Source: a phage. Taken from it: 40,116 nt of DNA. The stretch lies in the NCBI GenBank assembly GCA_011944185.1, contig GCA_011944185.1_3921.1. One strand, 5' to 3'. The notes beneath the pieces were generated by a model. That model searched no databases, was not told where the DNA came from, and saw only the letters and a program-made list of their open reading frames with translations. Shown here piece after piece: positions 10,045-22,758 of this stretch (position 1 is the first letter of the stretch; every line of letters starts with the position of its first letter). The translations under genes and the position numbers were made by a program.

Positions 10045-11391
10045 ATGAGTTCGAATATCTTCAGACTTGCTGATAGATTATTCAACCAACCTTTACTAGC
10101 CACTGAATCATTAGCTCACTCAGCAGCAACTTATGTGAATAACAGATTGCTGGGTGATGTCCAAGCAGCAGTAAACTTTGATAAACCCAAAGGTGACGCA
10201 AGAAGTCTTTTAAAAGTAAAAGATGACATTGCTATTATCCCTATTATGGGTGGTTTAACTCATCGTATGACGTTCATTGATGCAATGTGTACAGGTGGAT
10301 TAAGCTCTTATGAGGGTTTACGTAGAGGCTTTGACGAAGCTTTAGCAGATGAGTCAATCAAGACTATTGTTCTGCATATTGATTCTGGTGGTGGTGAAGC
10401 TTCAGGTTGCTTTGAATTAGCACGTCACATCATGGCTTCAAGAGGCCAAAAGAAAATTATTGCTTATGTAGATGAGTTCGCTTGTTCCGCTGCATATGCT
10501 CTTGCATCTTCTGCTGAAGAAATTATTGCATCACCAGATGCAGATGTTGGTTCTATTGGTGTAATCATGGTTCATCAGGAATTAACTAAGGCATTTGAAA
10601 AGAATGGCGTAACAATTAACGTCATCAAAGCTGGTGAGTTTAAAGGTATGGGTTCACCATTCCAAGCACTTTCAGAAGAAAGCAAAGAAAGACTTCAAAA
10701 GAGAATTAATGATACCTACGCAACCTTTACAGGTTTTGTAGCTGAAGCTCGTAATATCTCTGAAGAAGCTGTAAAGAATACTGAGGCGAATGTTTATTCT
10801 GCTCAGGAAGCTCTTGAACTTGGTTTAATTAACTCAATCATGTCTCAAGATGATTTCTTAAATTACTTACAAGGTTCTGAAGAGGCTCCTGTAAGTTTAA
10901 ACGTTAACAATTCAGGTGAAGAAATGACTGAACAAGAAAAGCAAGAACTAGAAGCTTTGCGTCTTCAGGTTGCTCAAATGAAAGCTAAAGAACAGGAAGC
11001 TGCTTTGTCAGATTTGACTAATAAGATTTCTGCTTCTGCTGAAGCTTTTGGATTTGATGCAAAAGAAGCTGCAACGACTATTTTAGGTGCTGGTCTTGAT
11101 AACCCTCTGAGTGTTCTGTTTATGAATGCTATGGAAGGTGCTAACCAGAAACTTAATGAAACTATCGCGTCCCATGCTTCTGCAATGGAAGAAAAAGAAT
11201 CAGAAATTACCAAGCTGAAAGAAACTGCTGGTGCTGTTCTTGAACATTCCAACGCTATGGAAGAAGTGGGTAATGACGGCGAAGCTGATTTAGTTGAAGA
11301 AGAAAAAGAACCAGCTAAGAATGCTTCCGAAGACACCGCTGAACAACGCAAACTGGCTCTCCAGAATGCTCTAAAATCTCTTATCAAATAA
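10045..11391 (+). CDS. prohead protease, S49/ClpP-like, with C-terminal scaffold-like coiled-coil region
   Basis: S49/SppA-like core (IDSGGGEASG ... FACSAAYALAS ... IGVIMVHQE); acidic, Ala/Glu-rich coiled-coil C-terminus; placed between portal and capsid genes like lambda gpC/Nu3. Confidence 0.78.
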   Translation: MSSNIFRLADRLFNQPLLATESLAHSAATYVNNRLLGDVQAAVNFDKPKGDARSLLKVKDDIAIIPIMGGLTHRMTFIDAMCTGGLSSYEGLRRGFDEALADESIKTIVLHIDSGGGEASGCFELARHIMASRGQKKIIAYVDEFACSAAYALASSAEEIIASPDADVGSIGVIMVHQELTKAFEKNGVTINVIKAGEFKGMGSPFQALSEESKERLQKRINDTYATFTGFVAEARNISEEAVKNTEANVYSAQEALELGLINSIMSQDDFLNYLQGSEEAPVSLNVNNSGEEMTEQEKQELEALRLQVAQMKAKEQEAALSDLTNKISASAEAFGFDAKEAATTILGAGLDNPLSVLFMNAMEGANQKLNETIASHASAMEEKESEITKLKETAGAVLEHSNAMEEVGNDGEADLVEEEKEPAKNASEDTAEQRKLALQNALKSLIK

Positions 11392-11402
11392 GGAACACAA
11401 TA

Positions 11403-11780
11403 ATGGCATATCAAGGTTTTACTAAGTTAGGTAAAAGAGAACCTCTGAATGATATCATTCTTTGGGAACAGGTTACCCCAACAGGCCACTCTCGTAAAGA
11501 GTACACCCCACAGGCATCTACAGAATATCGTGTAGGTGAAGTTCTGAAAGCAGATGGTACTAAAGTTGCAGCAGGGGAAGAAGCTCAGGCTGATTCTGTA
11601 TGTATCGTTAACTTTTATGCAGACCTGCAACTGTCTTACCACGGTCAGTTGAAAGTTGTTGGTATTTACCGTGACGCAGAACTGAAAGACATGCTGACTC
11701 TTGAGTCTGGTGTTAATGCCGAGAGCGTCAAGACAGCTCTGGCTGCTAAAGGTATTGATTTCGTACCAACTGGCCTGTAA
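11403..11780 (+). CDS. head decoration protein (gpD-like, by position and size)
   Basis: 125-aa ORF between protease and major capsid gene; codon usage matches the capsid gene. Confidence 0.5.
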   Translation: MAYQGFTKLGKREPLNDIILWEQVTPTGHSRKEYTPQASTEYRVGEVLKADGTKVAAGEEAQADSVCIVNFYADLQLSYHGQLKVVGIYRDAELKDMLTLESGVNAESVKTALAAKGIDFVPTGL

Positions 11781-11813
11781 TAACAATAATAAGACATTCT
11801 GGAGAATTTTACA

Positions 11814-12920
11814 ATGTTGACTAATTCTGAAAAAAGCAGATTTTTCCTTGCTGACCTGACTGGTGAAGTCCAGTCTATCCCAAATACTTATGGGTATATT
11901 TCCAACTTAGGTCTGTTCCGTTCAGCACCAATCACCCAAACTACTTTCCTTATGGACTTGACTGATTGGGATGTTAGCTTGCTTGATGCGGTAGACCGTG
12001 ATAGCCGTAAAGCAGAGACTAGCGCACCTGAGCGTGTTCGTCAAATCAGCTTCCCAATGATGTACTTCAAAGAAGTTGAAAGCATTACTCCTGATGAAAT
12101 TCAGGGTGTACGTCAGCCAGGCACTGCAAACGAACTGACTACTGAAGCTGTAGTACGTGCTAAGAAGCTGATGAAGATTCGTACCAAGTTCGATATTACT
12201 CGTGAGTTCCTGTTTATGCAAGCTCTGAAGGGTAAAGTTGTTGATGCTCGTGGTACTCTGTATGCTGACCTGTACAAGCAGTTCGACGTTGAGAAGAAGA
12301 CTGTTTACTTCGACCTTGACAACCCTAATGCTGACATCGACGCTTCTATTGAAGAACTGCGTATGCACATGGAAGACGAAGCTAAGACTGGCACTGTAAT
12401 CAACGGTGAAGAAATTCACGTAGTTGTTGACCGTGTATTCTTCAGCAAGCTGACTAAACACCCTAAGATTCGTGATGCCTATCTTGCACAGCAGACCCCA
12501 CTGGCTTGGCAACAGATTACTGGTTCTCTGAGAACTGGTGGTACTGACGGCGTTCAGGCTCACATGAACACTTTCTACTACGGTGGTGTTAAGTTTGTCC
12601 AGTACAACGGTAAGTTCAAAGACAAGCGTGGTAAGGTTCATACTCTGGTGAGCATTGATGGTGCTGGTGCAGAGGTTGGTGTAGGACACGCTTTCCCTAA
12701 CGTTTCTATGCTGGGTGAAGCAAACAACATCTTCGAAGTGGCTTATGGCCCATGCCCTAAGATGGGTTACGCAAATACACTTGGTCAGGAACTGTATGTA
12801 TTCGAATACGAAAAAGACCGTGATGAAGGTATTGACTTCGAAGCTCACTCTTACATGCTGCCATACTGTACTCGTCCTCAGTTGCTGGTAGACGTTCGTT
12901 CTGACGCTAAAGACGAATAA
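11814..12920 (+). CDS. major capsid protein (lambda gpE-like)
   Basis: 368-aa ORF in the canonical position; strongly biased codon usage (CTG, CGT, GAC) typical of a highly expressed virion gene. Confidence 0.8.
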   Translation: MLTNSEKSRFFLADLTGEVQSIPNTYGYISNLGLFRSAPITQTTFLMDLTDWDVSLLDAVDRDSRKAETSAPERVRQISFPMMYFKEVESITPDEIQGVRQPGTANELTTEAVVRAKKLMKIRTKFDITREFLFMQALKGKVVDARGTLYADLYKQFDVEKKTVYFDLDNPNADIDASIEELRMHMEDEAKTGTVINGEEIHVVVDRVFFSKLTKHPKIRDAYLAQQTPLAWQQITGSLRTGGTDGVQAHMNTFYYGGVKFVQYNGKFKDKRGKVHTLVSIDGAGAEVGVGHAFPNVSMLGEANNIFEVAYGPCPKMGYANTLGQELYVFEYEKDRDEGIDFEAHSYMLPYCTRPQLLVDVRSDAKDE

Positions 12921-12941
12921 TATTCTTAAGGAGGGTTATGA

Positions 12942-13391
12942 ATGTGTTATACAGGCGACCCAGCCAATAACCCTCTTGATAGAGTAAGAATCCTCTGCAC
13001 AGACACCAATAATGATGAAATTCTTATTGAACAGTCTGTGCTAGAGTGGTTCTATCTAGAATCTGGAAAGGATGAAAAGAAAGCAGCCATCAAAGCTCTT
13101 AAATATTTACTCTTTCAAGTAGCCAAGATGGGAGATGAGAAGGTTGGTGGTGTTTATTTACGTAACTCTTCCAGATTCAAATCTCTGAAAGCTGTTTATG
13201 ATGACCTTGTTAAAAGCTCTGTTTCAGGACTACCCTATGCAGGTGGTATTAACCAGTGCGATATTGATATGCGTCGTCAGAATCCTTGCTCTGTCAAGAA
13301 ATACACAGAATATGGTGATGCTGCCAGATACGAAGGCAGAGATTACTGCAACCGTGTTAATGGCGTATTTATTATCGAGCGAGATGAATAA
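12942..13391 (+). CDS. hypothetical head-tail joining protein
   Basis: ORF with AAGGAGGG RBS; position between capsid and tail genes. Confidence 0.45.
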   Translation: MCYTGDPANNPLDRVRILCTDTNNDEILIEQSVLEWFYLESGKDEKKAAIKALKYLLFQVAKMGDEKVGGVYLRNSSRFKSLKAVYDDLVKSSVSGLPYAGGINQCDIDMRRQNPCSVKKYTEYGDAARYEGRDYCNRVNGVFIIERDE

Positions 13392-13873
13392 TGGTTAAAA
13401 GGGTTATTCACCCCGCTAGAGCAAAATTAGTCGGGGCTATGAAGAACTTGCAAACGGCTAATGCTCAAGTTGGGTATTTTCAAGAACAAGGTCAACATAG
13501 CTCTGGTTTTTCTTATCCTGCTTTAATGTATTTGCAAGAAGTTATTGGGGTTCCCTCAGTTTCTGGTAAAGTATATCGTAGGTTGTTTGAAATCACTATG
13601 ATGCTAAACAGACAGACCTTGTTAGAGCAGACTAAGAAGAATCTATATAAGCAACTTAGCAGTCTCAACACAGACCCTTCAAATACCCTAGAAGCATTTG
13701 CAAAGAATGCTCAAAAGGCAATTAAAAGAGGTTTTGGTAATTCTGCTATCCTCCCTCCTAACGCACCTTCCACAGTCAAGAAAAAAGGCTTTAATGCACC
13801 TCTTGTTGAGACAGGTGACTTAAGGGATAACCTTGCTTATAAAATTTCTACTAAGAAGGGTATTAAGAAATGA
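13391..13873 (+). CDS. hypothetical head-tail joining protein
   Basis: translationally coupled ORF (160 aa). Confidence 0.45.
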   Translation: MVKRVIHPARAKLVGAMKNLQTANAQVGYFQEQGQHSSGFSYPALMYLQEVIGVPSVSGKVYRRLFEITMMLNRQTLLEQTKKNLYKQLSSLNTDPSNTLEAFAKNAQKAIKRGFGNSAILPPNAPSTVKKKGFNAPLVETGDLRDNLAYKISTKKGIKK

Positions 13874-14271
13874 GACTCTTAAACAGACACAGCTTTGTAG
13901 TAAAGCGTAAAGTCTCTGAAGACGGTTATTACAATGATGATGGTGATTGGGTAGCTTCACAAGATATTGTAGAGGTTAACTGCAAAGGTAATATCCAGCC
14001 ATATATCAAAGGTTCTGTAAAGAACGGTACACAGATTGCTTTACCGGAAGGTATCAGGCTTACCGATACAAGAATCCTGTATACTACATATAAACTTAGA
14101 ACTTCAGATGATGTAGAGTGGAATGAGTCTGATATTGTTATGATTGATGGTCATGAGTATGAAGTATTTATGACTATGGATTGGTCACAGCAATTAGCCC
14201 ATACGTCCCATTATGAATATATCATTATTAGAAGGGATAAAATGAATGCAGTTAGAAACAGCAGAACTTGA
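13870..14271 (+). CDS. hypothetical neck/tail completion protein
   Basis: overlapping start/stop coupling (133 aa). Confidence 0.45.
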   Translation: MRLLNRHSFVVKRKVSEDGYYNDDGDWVASQDIVEVNCKGNIQPYIKGSVKNGTQIALPEGIRLTDTRILYTTYKLRTSDDVEWNESDIVMIDGHEYEVFMTMDWSQQLAHTSHYEYIIIRRDKMNAVRNSRT

Positions 14272-14845
14272 AAAAGGTCTAGTTAGAACCTTAGTGGATG
14301 TTATTGGTCACAGACTAGCTCGTGATAAAAATAATAGACCAAACGTAATTAGAGCTTACCCTTCTGATAACTCAAATGACAAAGGTTTAAAACCTGACCA
14401 GCCATTTATTACCGTATATTGTCAAGATGCTGCAACACCTTATGGTTGGGTTCTTGATAAGTTTGTTGAGGATGATGTAGTTTGCTACAGAATTGCTTTT
14501 CAGATTCCAGTATTAATTACGGTAAATGGTAAAGGTGCTCACAGTATTATGCTTGAGCTTAAACAACGATTAGAGATGAGTTCAGTCAGAGATTTAATTC
14601 TTGAAGAGACAGGAGCTACAGTTTTAGACACTGGAGCTATCCCGAATGACTATACCTATCTCAATACAGATTTCGAAAATTCTGCGCCTCTTGTTGTAAC
14701 TCTTGTAAAAAATTCAGTCCTGAAAGATGAACGTGGGGGAATTATTGAACGTGTCATTGTTGATGGTGAATTAGTTTACGAAGAAGGACAAGAGCCACCA
14801 GAATATACTATCCATCTAGATGTAGACTCCAAAGGGGTAAAATAA
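14246..14845 (+). CDS. hypothetical tail completion protein
   Basis: 199-aa ORF overlapping the upstream gene by 26 nt. Confidence 0.45.
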   Translation: MQLETAELEKGLVRTLVDVIGHRLARDKNNRPNVIRAYPSDNSNDKGLKPDQPFITVYCQDAATPYGWVLDKFVEDDVVCYRIAFQIPVLITVNGKGAHSIMLELKQRLEMSSVRDLILEETGATVLDTGAIPNDYTYLNTDFENSAPLVVTLVKNSVLKDERGGIIERVIVDGELVYEEGQEPPEYTIHLDVDSKGVK

Positions 14846-16198
14846 ATGTGGAATCCAATTGTTAATGTAGATATTACATTGAACACCGCAGGAACTACAA
14901 GAGAAGGTTTTGGGCTACCACTATTTTTAGCTTCAACAGATAACTTTGAAGAAAGAGTCCGTGGTTACACTTCCTTAACTGAAGTTGCTGAAGATTTCGA
15001 TGAAAACTCTGCTGCATATAAGGCTGCTAAACAACTTTGGAGTCAGACTCCTAAAGTAACTCAGCTTTATATTGGTAGACGTGCTATGCAGTACACTGTA
15101 TCAATTCCTGATGAGGTTACTGAGAGCACCGACTATTCTTTAACTGTAGCTGTGAGCGGTGGAGTTTCTCAGCCATTCCAGTACACTTCACAGTCAGAAG
15201 ATACTGCTGAGAAGGTGCTACAGCAGCTTAAAACTCAGATTGAAGCAGAGCCTTCTGTAAAAGACCTTGTTACCGTCAATGTAACTGGTGCTGGTGGTTC
15301 AGCAACAATGGTAATCACCAAAGCGGGTGACAATGACTTCGTGAAGGTTACCACTACAGCACAAACAGTGTCAATTGCAAGTACAACTGCTGACACAGCA
15401 TCGACTGCTCTGGCAGCTATTGAGGCTTATTCAACTGACTGGTATTTCATTGCAGCAGAAGATAGAACTCAACAGTTTGTCTTAGCAATGGCTTCTGAGA
15501 TTCAAGCTCGTAAGAAGATTTTCTTTACAGCTAACTCTGATGTAACAGCCCTACAAGGCACAGAATTAGCCAGTGCAAATGATGTTCCAGCACAGCTTGT
15601 TAAGAGTCAGTACACTCGTACCGTTTGCTTGTGGCATCACACAGCAGCAGAAGACTATCCAGAAATGGCATACATTGCTTATGGCGCTCCGTATGATGCA
15701 GGTTCAATTGCTTGGGGTAACGCACAGTTAACTGGCGTAGCTGCTTCTCTACAGCCATCTAATCAGAGACCTCTGACAAGTATTCAGAAGTCAGCTTTAG
15801 ATGCACGTCACTGTAACTTTATTGACCTTGATGGTGGTGTTCCAGTGGTTCGTAGAGGGATTACTTCTGGTGGGGAATGGATTGATATCATCCGTGGTGT
15901 TGACTGGTTAGAATCAGACCTGAAAACTTCTCTGAGAGACTTGCTAATTAACCAGAAGGGTGGTAAGATTACTTATGATGATACTGGTATTACCCGTATT
16001 CGTCAAGTCATTGAAACCTCTCTGCAAAGAGCAGTCAACAGAAACTTCCTGTCATCTTACACAGTTAATGTTCCTAAAGCCTCTCAAGTTGCTTTGGCAG
16101 ACAAGAAAGCTCGTATCCTGAAAGACGTTACCTTCGCAGGTATCTTAGCAGGGGCTATCTTGGATGTTGACTTGAAAGGTACAGTGGCTTACGAATAA
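14846..16198 (+). CDS. tail sheath protein (contractile tail)
   Basis: 450 aa; sheath-like N-terminus (GFGLPLFLASTDNFEE); followed by a small tube-sized ORF, chaperones and tape measure in P2/Mu order. Confidence 0.6.
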   Translation: MWNPIVNVDITLNTAGTTREGFGLPLFLASTDNFEERVRGYTSLTEVAEDFDENSAAYKAAKQLWSQTPKVTQLYIGRRAMQYTVSIPDEVTESTDYSLTVAVSGGVSQPFQYTSQSEDTAEKVLQQLKTQIEAEPSVKDLVTVNVTGAGGSATMVITKAGDNDFVKVTTTAQTVSIASTTADTASTALAAIEAYSTDWYFIAAEDRTQQFVLAMASEIQARKKIFFTANSDVTALQGTELASANDVPAQLVKSQYTRTVCLWHHTAAEDYPEMAYIAYGAPYDAGSIAWGNAQLTGVAASLQPSNQRPLTSIQKSALDARHCNFIDLDGGVPVVRRGITSGGEWIDIIRGVDWLESDLKTSLRDLLINQKGGKITYDDTGITRIRQVIETSLQRAVNRNFLSSYTVNVPKASQVALADKKARILKDVTFAGILAGAILDVDLKGTVAYE

Positions 16199-16213
16199 TA
16201 GAGGTAAATTGGA

Positions 16214-16660
16214 ATGGCTATGTATCAGCAATATTCCCCTAAAGACGTTGTGTGTAGCTGGAATGGTATTGCTATTGAAGGCTTTGCCCCAGACTCATTC
16301 TTACGTCTACAGAGAACATCACCACTTGTGACACCAGTTGTAGGTGCAGGTGGTCAAGTTGCTCTGACAAGAAATGCAGACAAGACAGGTACTATTGAGA
16401 TTGAGCTAATGCAGACTTCTCTCTCTAACCAGATGCTTTCTGCAATTCAAGCTAAACAAGACAATATGGAACTTGAAGAAGATATCTCTTCTAACTTCGT
16501 AATCTACGACCCATCAGGCTCTGTTCTGGCAACTGGTATTAATGCTTGGTTGCAGGAATTACCACAGATTGAACTTGGTCGTGACCAGAACTCTAAGACT
16601 TGGATTTTTGGTTGTGAGAAGCTAGACTACACTTCTACAATTCCAGCGTCAAGTGTTTAA
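16214..16660 (+). CDS. tail tube protein
   Basis: 148 aa; position after the sheath gene; followed by a terminator. Confidence 0.55.
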   Translation: MAMYQQYSPKDVVCSWNGIAIEGFAPDSFLRLQRTSPLVTPVVGAGGQVALTRNADKTGTIEIELMQTSLSNQMLSAIQAKQDNMELEEDISSNFVIYDPSGSVLATGINAWLQELPQIELGRDQNSKTWIFGCEKLDYTSTIPASSV

Positions 16661-16672
16661 TAAATCCTATAA

Positions 16673-16706
16673 GGGGGAGACTTTAAAAGGTCTTCCCCTT
16701 TTTTGT
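16673..16706 (+). terminator. rho-independent terminator (probable attenuator after sheath/tube)
   Basis: 9-bp stem 16673-16681/16690-16698 with an 8-nt loop, then TTTTTTGT. Confidence 0.55.
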
Positions 16707-16733
16707 TTCTTTTAAAAATATTAAGGAATCACA

Positions 16734-17132
16734 ATGAAAACAGAATCTAGAGTAATTAATGGTAAGAAAGTAAATATCGTTCTGCTTGGGGCAAGAGATG
16801 GTATTAAGATGTCTATGAAGTTGGGTAAAATTGTTGTTCCAACCTTTGCACAGATGCTGTCAAGTCTGACTGATAAAGACAAGAAAGAAGCTCCAATGGT
16901 TCCATTTAAAGAACTTGTTGAAGCTTGTTTTGACAGAATTGAAGAAATTAACCTTGAAGAAATGGCTACCTTACTATTTCAAGGGGCGACTGTTGATGAC
17001 TTCCCACTAAATATTGATACCTACTTCCAAGCAAACTACGGTGAATTTATTGATTACTTAGCATTTGCGCTGGAGGCAAACTTCGGAAGTTTTTTCGAAG
17101 CAAGCATTTTCAAAAGCCTAACTTCTCAGTAA
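16734..17132 (+). CDS. tail assembly chaperone (gpG/gpE-like)
   Basis: 132-aa ORF immediately upstream of the tape measure gene; contains slippery heptamer T_TTT_TTC at 17090-17096. Confidence 0.6.
   Translation: MKTESRVINGKKVNIVLLGARDGIKMSMKLGKIVVPTFAQMLSSLTDKDKKEAPMVPFKELVEACFDRIEEINLEEMATLLFQGATVDDFPLNIDTYFQANYGEFIDYLAFALEANFGSFFEASIFKSLTSQ
17090..17096 (+). promoter_or_regulatory. programmed -1 ribosomal frameshift slippery site (TTTTTTC)
   Basis: X_XXY_YYZ heptamer in the 0 frame of the chaperone gene, about 35 nt before its stop. Confidence 0.5.
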
Positions 17133-17134
17133 AC

Positions 17135-17373
17135 ATGGGTAACACTCTACAGACACCACTGACTGATGCTGCTGTAGAGGCAACCTATGAAGAAGCAGAC
17201 GAGATGAAATTTGTGCTTGCTATTTATGGTATGGAAGGGTGTAAAGAAACACTTGACCAACTCTTTGCTATGACATTCTCTGATTTATTATCATTGAGAC
17301 AATTTCTTGAGATTCAGAGGTCGTATAAAGAGGAAATTGCTTACAACGAACTTAGAAGAGCAGGAAAAATGTA

Positions 17374-17374
<1 letters not shown>
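17135..17374 (+). CDS. tail assembly chaperone frameshift extension (gpGT/gpE+E'-like), reached by -1 frameshift from 16734
   Basis: ORF is in the -1 frame relative to 16734..17132; the -1 frame is open from the slippery site at 17090 through 17374. Confidence 0.55.

Positions 17375-22758
<5,384 letters not shown>

Follow-up and report, generated by a model that had tools for sequence, protein, structure and literature searches.

Host-preferred codons in the decoration and major capsid genes of a Felix-O1-like phage

The capsid pair and its codon usage

Two adjacent plus-strand genes in a 40,116-nucleotide stretch of phage DNA (contig GCA_011944185.1_3921.1 of GenBank assembly GCA_011944185.1; the whole stretch is called the window here) use synonymous codons in a manner that sets them apart from the genes around them. 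The first gene, at 11403..11780 (+), encodes a 125-amino-acid head decoration protein (Dec) of the beta-tulip type. The second, at 11814..12920 (+), encodes the 368-amino-acid major capsid protein (MCP), which has the HK97 fold. Together, we call them the capsid pair. The source phage is a Felixounavirus, that is, a Felix-O1-like phage of Escherichia coli. Specifically, the 4-kb stretch around the capsid pair is 97.7-99.3% identical to Felixounavirus genomes of Escherichia/Salmonella such as KEP1, DE17, and Ro111lw (about 99% for KEP1 and Ro111lw), and 258 phage records match it. The window begins with a tRNA cluster, which is followed on the plus strand by terminase, head, neck, tail, and baseplate genes and then by early/middle genes on the minus strand.

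The identities of the two gene products, which the original prediction had named as decoration and major capsid proteins, are borne out by solved structures. Both are near-identical to modelled proteins of the T=9 capsids of phages Bas63 and Sf14 (9NCF, chains A and J; 9C2D/9C3A; PMC12609058, PMC11821841). The MCP matches PDB 9ncf_A over its full length (E=1e-245) and the Pfam family Phage_cap_E (PF03864; 3e-78, 263 bits). Dec matches 9ncf_J, entitled “Head stabilization/decoration protein” (E=3e-74), and 9c2d_J, both over the full length; a Pfam search with Dec gave no match. The PHROG family of Dec (phrog_4146) carries the label “tail protease”, which clashes with the solved structures. That name is a misnomer for 11403-11780, whose product is the capsid beta-tulip decoration protein. 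The mislabel is carried on in several GenBank records.

The Bas63 structure also supplies the stoichiometry of the Felixounavirus virion (PMC12609058). Its capsid contains 535 MCP and 540 beta-tulip Dec subunits. Its tail consists of 26 hexameric discs of sheath and tube, corresponding to 156 copies of each, and most other parts are present in 6-12 copies, with a dodecameric portal and adaptor and hexameric head-completion and terminator proteins.

We scored 48 genes of the window, the capsid pair and 46 others, by the codon adaptation index (CAI), with 30 E. coli K-12 ribosomal-protein, EF-Tu/G, and rpoA genes (5185 codons) as the reference. The MCP gene has the highest CAI of the window, 0.650, and the Dec gene has a CAI of 0.599; the remaining 46 genes lie between 0.23 and 0.51. 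Two null models define what is expected by chance. In the first, the protein is fixed and synonymous codons are resampled from the other genes of the window. In the second, the GC3 class of every codon (its G+C status at the third position) is held as well, and 5000 simulations were made. With the protein fixed, the null expectation for MCP is 0.374+/-0.019, placing the gene at z=14.5, and Dec is at z=6.6. With the GC3 class also fixed, z is 10.6 for MCP and 5.0 for Dec, and 0/5000 simulations attain the observed CAI. A G-test of MCP codon usage against the pool gives p=1.7e-24. Thus, the sharp codon shift predicted at 11403-12920 is real and far beyond chance, and gene-by-gene scoring puts the capsid pair far above the other 46 genes even when GC3 class is held.

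The shift is most evident at leucine and arginine codons. In MCP, CTG accounts for 17/28 Leu codons and TTA for 1/28, and CGT accounts for 17/19 Arg codons and AGA for 2/19. In Dec, the corresponding counts are 8/12, 1/12, 3/4, and 1/4. CGT therefore supplies 20/23 Arg codons of the capsid pair. In the neighboring late genes, CTG makes up 0-20% of Leu codons, and Arg is mostly AGA. Fisher tests of the capsid pair against the other late genes yield odds ratios of 14 for CTG (p=1e-13), 28 for CGT (p=4e-11), and 2.7 for GAC (p=0.006), with 0.09 for AGA (p=3e-6) and 0.11 for TTA (p=1e-4). The original prediction was therefore right that CTG, CGT, and GAC are heavily used in the pair and that TTA and AGA belong to the flanking genes. 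Two of its codons do not hold up. GGT, proposed as characteristic of the capsid pair, is the main Gly codon everywhere (28/37 in the pair and 369/526 elsewhere, p=0.58), and ATA, proposed for the flanking genes, is absent from every late gene of the window (+ strand, 6102-29161). Overall, the codons that rise in the capsid pair are CTG, CGT, AGC, TCT, ACT, TTC, TAC, CAC, GAC, and CAG, and those that fall are TTA, CTA, AGA, AGG, TCA, ACA, and AGT.

The same shortage of particular codons has a counterpart on the opposite strand. Antisense open reading frames (ORFs) at 11922-12848 (-) (308 amino acids) and 11427-11786 (-) (119 amino acids) run in register with the MCP and Dec codons. TTA, CTA, and TCA, the reverse complements of which are stops, total 2 in MCP and 1 in Dec, all within the first 37 codons. 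The two antisense frames are shadow ORFs, not genes.

Could the anomaly be an artefact of composition, arising from amino-acid makeup or from regional base or mutational heterogeneity, with no selection on codons? The two proteins are rich in Ala, Gly, Val, Asp, and Glu, and G+C at the first codon position is high in both genes (0.57-0.62); moreover, other G+C bumps in the window, in the sheath and tape measure genes, do come from codon positions 1 and 2. The signal in the capsid pair, however, survives both the fixed protein and the fixed GC3 class. The change is codon-specific and includes the T-ending host favorites CGT, ACT, and TCT. It is not a rise in GC3, as CGC, CCG, and GCG are almost unused. 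The block also ends exactly at the MCP stop codon. We consider a compositional origin exceedingly improbable.

The direction of the shift is toward the host. The difference in relative synonymous codon usage (RSCU) that separates the capsid pair from the other late genes correlates with the RSCU of E. coli ribosomal-protein genes (Spearman 0.68, p=3e-9). Compared with that set directly, the capsid pair reaches a rho of 0.66, against 0.21 for the remaining late genes and 0.25 for the early ones. By the tRNA adaptation index (tAI) for the host pool, computed from E. coli tRNA gene copy numbers, Dec (0.349) and MCP (0.341) take ranks 1 and 2 of 48. Adaptation in the other structural genes does not exceed that in early genes (frequency of optimal codons 0.43 versus 0.41). 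Across eight proteins, CAI follows virion copy number (Spearman 0.91, p=0.002), with copy numbers taken from Bas63 (PMC12609058). These results uphold the proposal that the most abundant virion proteins, at 535 and 540 copies, are tuned to host-preferred codons. The bias is toward the usage of highly expressed host genes, is independent of amino-acid content and GC3, and scales with copy number.

We propose that the shift stems from translational selection acting on the two phage genes with the highest output, and we assign this reading a probability of roughly 0.85. The notion is as follows. Demand for MCP and Dec subunits is high, and their mRNAs would therefore take most of the ribosome time of late infection. 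In these two genes, selection would hold codons read by abundant host tRNAs, namely CTG (Leu-CAG), CGT (Arg-ICG), TCT, AGC, and ACT, together with the C-ending two-fold codons and CAG, and would purge the slow or rare codons TTA, CTA, AGA, AGG, TCA, ACA, and AGT. The expected benefit would be faster elongation, earlier release of ribosomes, and more capsids per unit time. In low-copy late genes, weaker selection would leave usage at an AT-biased equilibrium (TTA, AGA, and A-/T-ending codons), buffered by phage tRNAs carrying U34. We infer, rather than measure, the gain in translation rate, yield, and phage fitness.

Several observations weigh against this proposal. Adaptation is incomplete: the capsid pair contains no CGC, no CCG (0/18), and one GCG, although the host favors these codons, and only 8/22 Ile codons are ATC. 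AAG, at 18/33, is if anything raised, contrary to host preference, and fits the phage tRNA-Lys(CUU). A promoter/terminator scan revealed nothing bracketing the capsid pair, with totals near shuffled expectation, and the Shine-Dalgarno sequences of Dec and MCP are not visibly stronger than those of their neighbors. With respect to the codons that deviate, NCG codons (CCG, GCG, TCG, ACG) are rare even in the capsid pair, where Pro is CCA or CCT only. The CCA/CCT usage and the raised AAG, occurring beside phage tRNA-Pro(UGG) and tRNA-Lys(CUU), suggest that the pair is tuned to host and phage tRNAs together.

Age and extent of the codon bias

The same codon bias exists in relatives of the phage. 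We compared 21 syntenic genes of the window with those of Shigella phage Sf15 (Mooglevirus) and Erwinia phage vEam_W_28 (Kolesnikvirus). The CAI of MCP is 0.650 in the window, 0.645 in Sf15, and 0.645 in vEam_W_28; that of Dec is 0.599, 0.591, and 0.674, respectively. In each of the three phages, neighboring genes have CAI values of 0.3-0.5. Between the window and vEam_W_28, synonymous sites are saturated (proportion of synonymous differences, pS, 0.64-0.84) except in MCP, which has the lowest value of the 21 genes, 0.528. At conserved residues, MCP retains the identical codon in 67% of cases, the highest value, and the others do so in 39-55%. Codons at which the amino acid has changed show the bias as well: their CAI in the window and in vEam_W_28 is 0.675 and 0.657 for MCP and 0.565 and 0.602 for Dec. 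Likewise, at amino-acid-replaced sites, Leu and Arg are encoded by CTG or CGT in 26/38 cases in the capsid pair versus 119/548 in other genes. Thus, the bias is as strong at replaced as at conserved codons. Because bias of the same strength persists in three genera despite saturated synonymous divergence, and extends to replaced codons, we conclude from these alignments that it is ancestral to the subfamily and is kept up continuously by selection.

The comparison also bears on a second explanation, which the original prediction had put forward as its alternative: recent horizontal gain of the Dec-MCP pair from a higher-G+C phage, with the codons as a donor signature that has not yet ameliorated. 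The G+C content across 11.4-12.9 kb, 0.44-0.465 against approximately 0.38 around it, is what such an event could leave. Felixounavirus genomes are, moreover, mosaic by module, with the synonymous divergence (dS) to Sf15 ranging from 0.3-0.9 in the head-tail genes to 1-2.5 in the baseplate genes. The capsid pair itself, however, does not look foreign. The protease-Dec-MCP synteny is conserved in the three genera that share the bias. MCP is 65% identical in amino acids to its vEam_W_28 counterpart, in line with terminase (69%), portal (67%), and sheath (60%), and the dS values to Sf15 of MCP (0.61) and Dec (0.46) match those of the neighbors (0.42-0.55). Outside the Ounavirinae, the nearest MCP is at most 32% identical, so that no close homologue from another lineage presents itself as a donor, and no mobile-element genes lie beside the capsid pair. 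Nor is the shift a general rise in GC3 (CGC 0, CCG 0, GCG 1). Finally, equal bias at replaced and conserved codons indicates that it is renewed rather than decaying. We reject a recent horizontal origin, which is very improbable on this evidence.

The region of high CAI is somewhat larger than the capsid pair. It begins approximately 280 nucleotides upstream of Dec, at 11125..11391 (+), in the last ~90 codons of the gene for an S49 prohead protease/scaffold (10045-11391, +). Specifically, codons 362-448 of that gene have a CAI of 0.61 (0.60-0.69 in sliding windows over the last ~90 codons) versus 0.35 for codons 2-134. From there, high CAI continues with dips in the first 40-80 codons of Dec and of MCP, and it stops abruptly at the MCP stop codon. 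(A maximum-scoring-segment analysis of codon log-weights, made without an offset, returned an uninformative 8.7-kb segment, 10213-18963, and sliding windows were used in its place.) The dips are part of a general pattern: 18/22 late genes possess a 5' ramp of poorer codons, with a mean CAI of 0.32 in the first 40 codons versus 0.41 in the rest, and the sole TTA/TCA codons of MCP and Dec fall within this ramp.

Pfam Peptidase_S49 covers only amino acids 134-275 of the protease gene. The C-terminal part is rich in Glu, Ala, and Lys and is probably the scaffold. An in-frame ATG at codon 294 (position 10924) follows an AGGTGA-like Shine-Dalgarno sequence. By analogy with lambda C/Nu3, the gene may encode a nested scaffold protein.

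Below the capsid pair is a second tier of genes with moderate CAI excess (z=2-4). The tier comprises protease/scaffold (CAI 0.453), sheath (0.439), DNA polymerase (0.437), and tube (0.418). The tail sheath gene (14846..16198, +; phrog_205) and the tail tube gene (16214..16660, +), each specifying a 156-copy protein, have z values of 3.9 and 2.05, respectively; the tube gene was assigned from gene order, gp13/gp14, as in Bas63. A strong intrinsic-terminator-like hairpin, with a 13-bp stem followed by a T-run, lies directly after the tube gene at 16671-16700 (+), and none comparable follows MCP.

The complete Ro111lw genome allows genome-wide ranking. Among its 130 coding sequences, MCP ranks first for CAI and Dec third. 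Rank 2 (CAI 0.611) belongs to 55009-55866 of MH571750.1, encoding a 285-amino-acid phrog_3877 protein with no function assigned, located between primase/helicase and exonuclease genes. Rank 4 (CAI 0.597) is rIIB, at 74143-75252. Both are probably very highly expressed early/middle proteins. A further high-CAI gene that lies outside the window is 76586-77050. We found no family annotation for 55009-55866 or 76586-77050.

Phage tRNAs and a rearranged tRNA-Arg candidate

The tRNA cluster of the window (98..5672, +) contains 25 tRNAs called by ARAGORN, without Trp and without a canonical Arg(UCU). The set is near-complete at one tRNA per codon box, with U34 in the four-fold and A/G boxes and G34 in the pyrimidine two-fold boxes, and it also holds Arg(ACG), Lys(CUU), Gln(CUG), and Leu(CAA). 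The original prediction assigned to the phage tRNAs the AT-rich codons used elsewhere in the genome. This idea is correct in that the set reads TTA, CTA, TCA, ACA, and CAA. It fails as a division of labor, as the capsid codons are served equally: CGT (by tRNA-Arg(ACG), 3422..3497, +), the C-ending two-fold codons, CAG, and AAG all have phage readers. In MCP, a fraction of 0.54 of the codons has a Watson-Crick cognate among the phage tRNAs, versus 0.40-0.57 in other genes. Phage-cognate codons are not enriched in either RSCU contrast (Mann-Whitney p=0.44, 0.85), and neither phage-only nor combined-pool tAI separates the capsid genes from the others. We therefore no longer hold that phage-read codons are avoided in the capsid genes. 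No phage tRNA reads GGT, the main Gly codon in all genes.

The late genes as a class have a distinctive relationship to rare codons. The RSCU of AGA is 3.75 in late versus 1.46 in early genes, and ATA, absent from the late genes of the window, occurs in 1/7503 late codons of Ro111lw versus 115/17923 elsewhere. AGA, which is as rare in the host as ATA, is the preferred late-gene Arg codon. A UCU tRNA is encoded in the phage family, and no dedicated ATA-reading tRNA is evident there. Late-gene codon usage thus looks to be shaped by which rare-codon tRNAs the phage supplies. The gene at 3263-3337 (+), which ARAGORN names “tRNA-Ile(TAT)”, is the family tRNA-Val(TAC) carrying two private changes at critical positions: C36->T, within the anticodon, and T54->C, within the T-loop. 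The variant has no identical counterpart in 216 phage records, and an IMG/VR scan gave 0 exact copies. Decay of a tRNA-Val, a switch of anticodon, and a sequencing error are all possible explanations.

These patterns lend some weight to a third explanation for the capsid codons: selection for something other than elongation speed. Possible targets are accuracy in a 535-fold assembly, codon-linked mRNA stability, or avoidance of queueing, the last with capsid genes drawing on the host tRNA pool and minor late genes on phage-supplied tRNAs. The late class does appear tRNA-linked (AGA favored with a UCU tRNA in the family, ATA absent with no evident reader), and the capsid pair departs from that class. 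Furthermore, Ross and Doore 2025 argue that late genes of phage Sf14 depend on phage tRNAs (PMC12482277). On the other side, neither the phage-pool tAI nor the phage-cognate codon fraction sets the capsid genes apart, and the capsid codons CGT, AAG, and CCA are read directly by phage tRNAs. Speed, accuracy, and stability predict the same codon set, and sequence cannot tell them apart. We regard selection for a target other than speed as unlikely, and we retain translational selection for output as the most likely cause of the capsid codon usage.

The preference for AGA raises the question of its reader, as ARAGORN finds none in the window. The only candidate is a 79-nucleotide element at 1740..1818 (+), a putative non-canonical tRNA-Arg(UCU) with an encoded CCA. 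ARAGORN is silent on it. Against the Rfam tRNA model, it aligns with a deleted D-arm and a 20-nucleotide insertion and reaches 31.7 bits; a covariance model that we built scores it at 101 bits. In Ro111lw and Sf15, the same slot, between tRNA-Ile(GAT) and tRNA-Ser/Leu and with a homologous upstream flank, is occupied by a canonical tRNA-Arg(TCT). Megablast finds the element in 121 records, including Felix O1 (AF320576.1) and wV8; no tRNA annotation of it exists among the matches listed. The canonical tRNA-Arg(TCT) allele occurs in 145 records. Because 121 and 145 together approximate the number of Ounavirinae-like records, the two alleles appear to be alternatives. Directly 3' of the element lies an ORF for an HNH homing endonuclease (1785/1839-2183, +), and approximately 26 Felixounavirus records contain the whole arrangement. 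In other phage families, the tRNA-like gene occurs without an HNH gene.

The element is not confined to relatives of Felix O1. Sensitive blastn detects copies with 83-90% identity in phages that are not related (Justusliebigvirus, Mydovirus, jumbo Klebsiella/E. coli phages, and others), where they sit, unannotated, within tRNA clusters. Further copies lie at 1506-1584 of locus L007, 1502-1580 of L008, 1499-1577 of L009, 1498-1576 of L010, and 2689-2763 and 4029-4107 of L056, and also at approximately 60 IMG/VR loci. ARAGORN does not call the element in L007-L010; on 30 further loci, it calls one, in L023, as tRNA-Arg(tct). A canonical Arg(TCT) accompanies it in only one of 12 loci that have 15 or more tRNAs. 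In cellular genomes, the element occurs in 2/185,579, both of them metagenome-assembled contigs of 36-41 kb.

Comparison of the copies points to a structured RNA. Thirty distinct copies, all 79 nucleotides long, have 98.6% of stem cells paired, and 14/17 pairs show compensatory changes (0/500 shuffles). The wider family ranges from 74 to 84 nucleotides, and the covariance model gives members 90-103 bits and ordinary tRNAs at most 36 bits. Many parts of a cloverleaf are present: a 7-bp acceptor stem, a 5-bp anticodon stem with a 7-nucleotide loop (U33, purine 37), and a 5-bp T stem with a GTTCRA loop. CCA is encoded in 45/67 distinct members. A canonical D-arm hairpin (positions 9-26) is absent, as only 5 nucleotides separate position 9 from the anticodon stem. 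Although the search pattern leaves the anticodon unconstrained, the 67 members have TCT (49), ACG (13), TCG (4), or CCT (1), all four of which are arginine anticodons. In E. coli, the identity elements for arginyl-tRNA synthetase (ArgRS) are C35 in the arginine anticodon and A20 after G18-G19. A GG-A motif is present in the members, but the search pattern fixes it.

What has become of the D-arm is indicated by covariation. When the conserved CUC and GAG triplets are freed in the pattern as well, positions 11-13 pair with the three bases preceding UAANUGGA. Pairs 12-23 and 11-24 are formed in 67/67 members, each through four pair types; shuffles achieve at most 52/67 and 61/67. Pair 13-22 is Watson-Crick, C.A, or G.A, and 10-25 is U.U. 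Thus, the strands of the D-stem flank the anticodon arm, with CUC (11-13) on its 5' side and GAG on its 3' side, the latter followed by a D-loop-like AANUGGA. The predicted molecule would retain U8, a D-stem, the D-loop-like AANUGGA, the anticodon arm, and the T arm, and would effectively be a three-way junction with a long D-plus-anticodon arm.

We considered and set aside other interpretations. A private pseudogene, or an HNH-immunity allele of tRNA-Arg, does not agree with heavy covariation of the element in unrelated phage families that lack the HNH gene. A serine-accepting, class II-like tRNA that reads AGA does not agree with a family in which every anticodon is that of arginine. A D-arm-less fold with a small variable-arm hairpin, the RNAalifold consensus, is disfavored: the hairpin is lost in divergent members, and the helix 11-13/22-24 covaries. 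We think that 1740-1818 probably encodes a functional non-cloverleaf tRNA-Arg, with a decoy or regulatory RNA as the main alternative. More tentatively, late-gene AGA might be decoded by this phage-specific, rearranged-cloverleaf tRNA-Arg, of which we found no description in the literature searched, in the present phage as well as in Felix O1, wV8, and approximately 120 other Felixounavirus records.

In describing the Felix O1 genome, its authors noted that a tRNA for Arg[AGA] “might have been expected” and found none (PMC3185647). If the element does read AGA, it would fill that gap. Bacterial ribosomes and ArgRS would then be able to work with a non-cloverleaf tRNA, and the switch of the capsid genes to CGT would additionally free them from the rearranged AGA adaptor. 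If functional, the element would change how phage tRNA repertoires and AGA decoding are counted. It occurs in widely used phages (Felix O1, wV8, rV5-like, and jumbo phages). It deserves separate follow-up, and it matters more than the codon shift.

Comparison with known systems

Other tRNAs depart from the cloverleaf and likewise keep the acceptor stem, anticodon arm, and T arm: the mitochondrial tRNAs lacking a D-arm and the permuted or split tRNAs of archaea and algae. Unlike these, the phage RNA would keep a covarying D-stem (11-24, 12-23) and AANUGGA, with one strand and the loop located 3' of the anticodon arm. Also unlike these, it is limited to phages, being near-absent in cells, and to arginine anticodons.

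Host-preferred codons in capsid genes are a known and well-understood phenomenon. Lucks, Nelson, Kudla, and Plotkin 2008 reported, over 74 phages, that CAI is highest in head genes, lower in tail genes, and lowest in non-structural genes (PMC2266997). The two randomization controls used here are the same as theirs, and they have the same outcome. Both genes of the capsid pair exhibit the hallmarks on which that study relied: excess CAI, excess with GC3 fixed, host direction, and bias scaling with virion copy number. Unlike the phages of that study, the present phage concentrates the signal in two of ~26 late genes with a graded second tier beneath, and it possesses a near-complete tRNA set. 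The implication is that per-gene codon adaptation can flag the highest-output genes of an uncharacterized phage; here, it picks MCP and the lattice decoration protein. A local G+C or codon anomaly in a phage capsid gene should not be taken as horizontal transfer.

A concrete link between capsid codons and phage performance comes from T7. Recoding of the gene 10 capsid protein with poor codons yields less capsid protein and affects phage fitness (PMC5592923). The T7 case is an experimental demonstration of the mechanism that we infer here, in a different phage that has no tRNA genes. We found no comparable capsid deoptimization for a Felixounavirus in the literature searched. Neither did that search uncover a gene-by-gene account of capsid codon tuning in the Ounavirinae: the Felix O1 genome paper deals with codon usage only at the level of the whole genome (PMC3185647), and the available text of the Bas63 and Sf14 structural papers does not discuss it (PMC12609058, PMC11821841).

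A close parallel is the study by Ross and Doore 2025 of Shigella phage Sf14, a Mooglevirus, which reports that late-gene codon usage differs from that of early/middle genes and ties the difference to phage tRNAs (PMC12482277). Mooglevirus is a sister genus with the same tRNA cluster, and the AGA/ATA pattern of the late genes here agrees with those findings. In its accessible text, the Sf14 study pools the late genes and does not single out MCP and Dec as host-tuned (PMC12482277). The per-gene view taken here, unlike the pooled one, shows that MCP and Dec are opposite to the other late genes for Arg and Leu. Thus, treating “late genes” as a single class, as is done in studies of tRNA function in this phage group, hides two opposite codon regimes.

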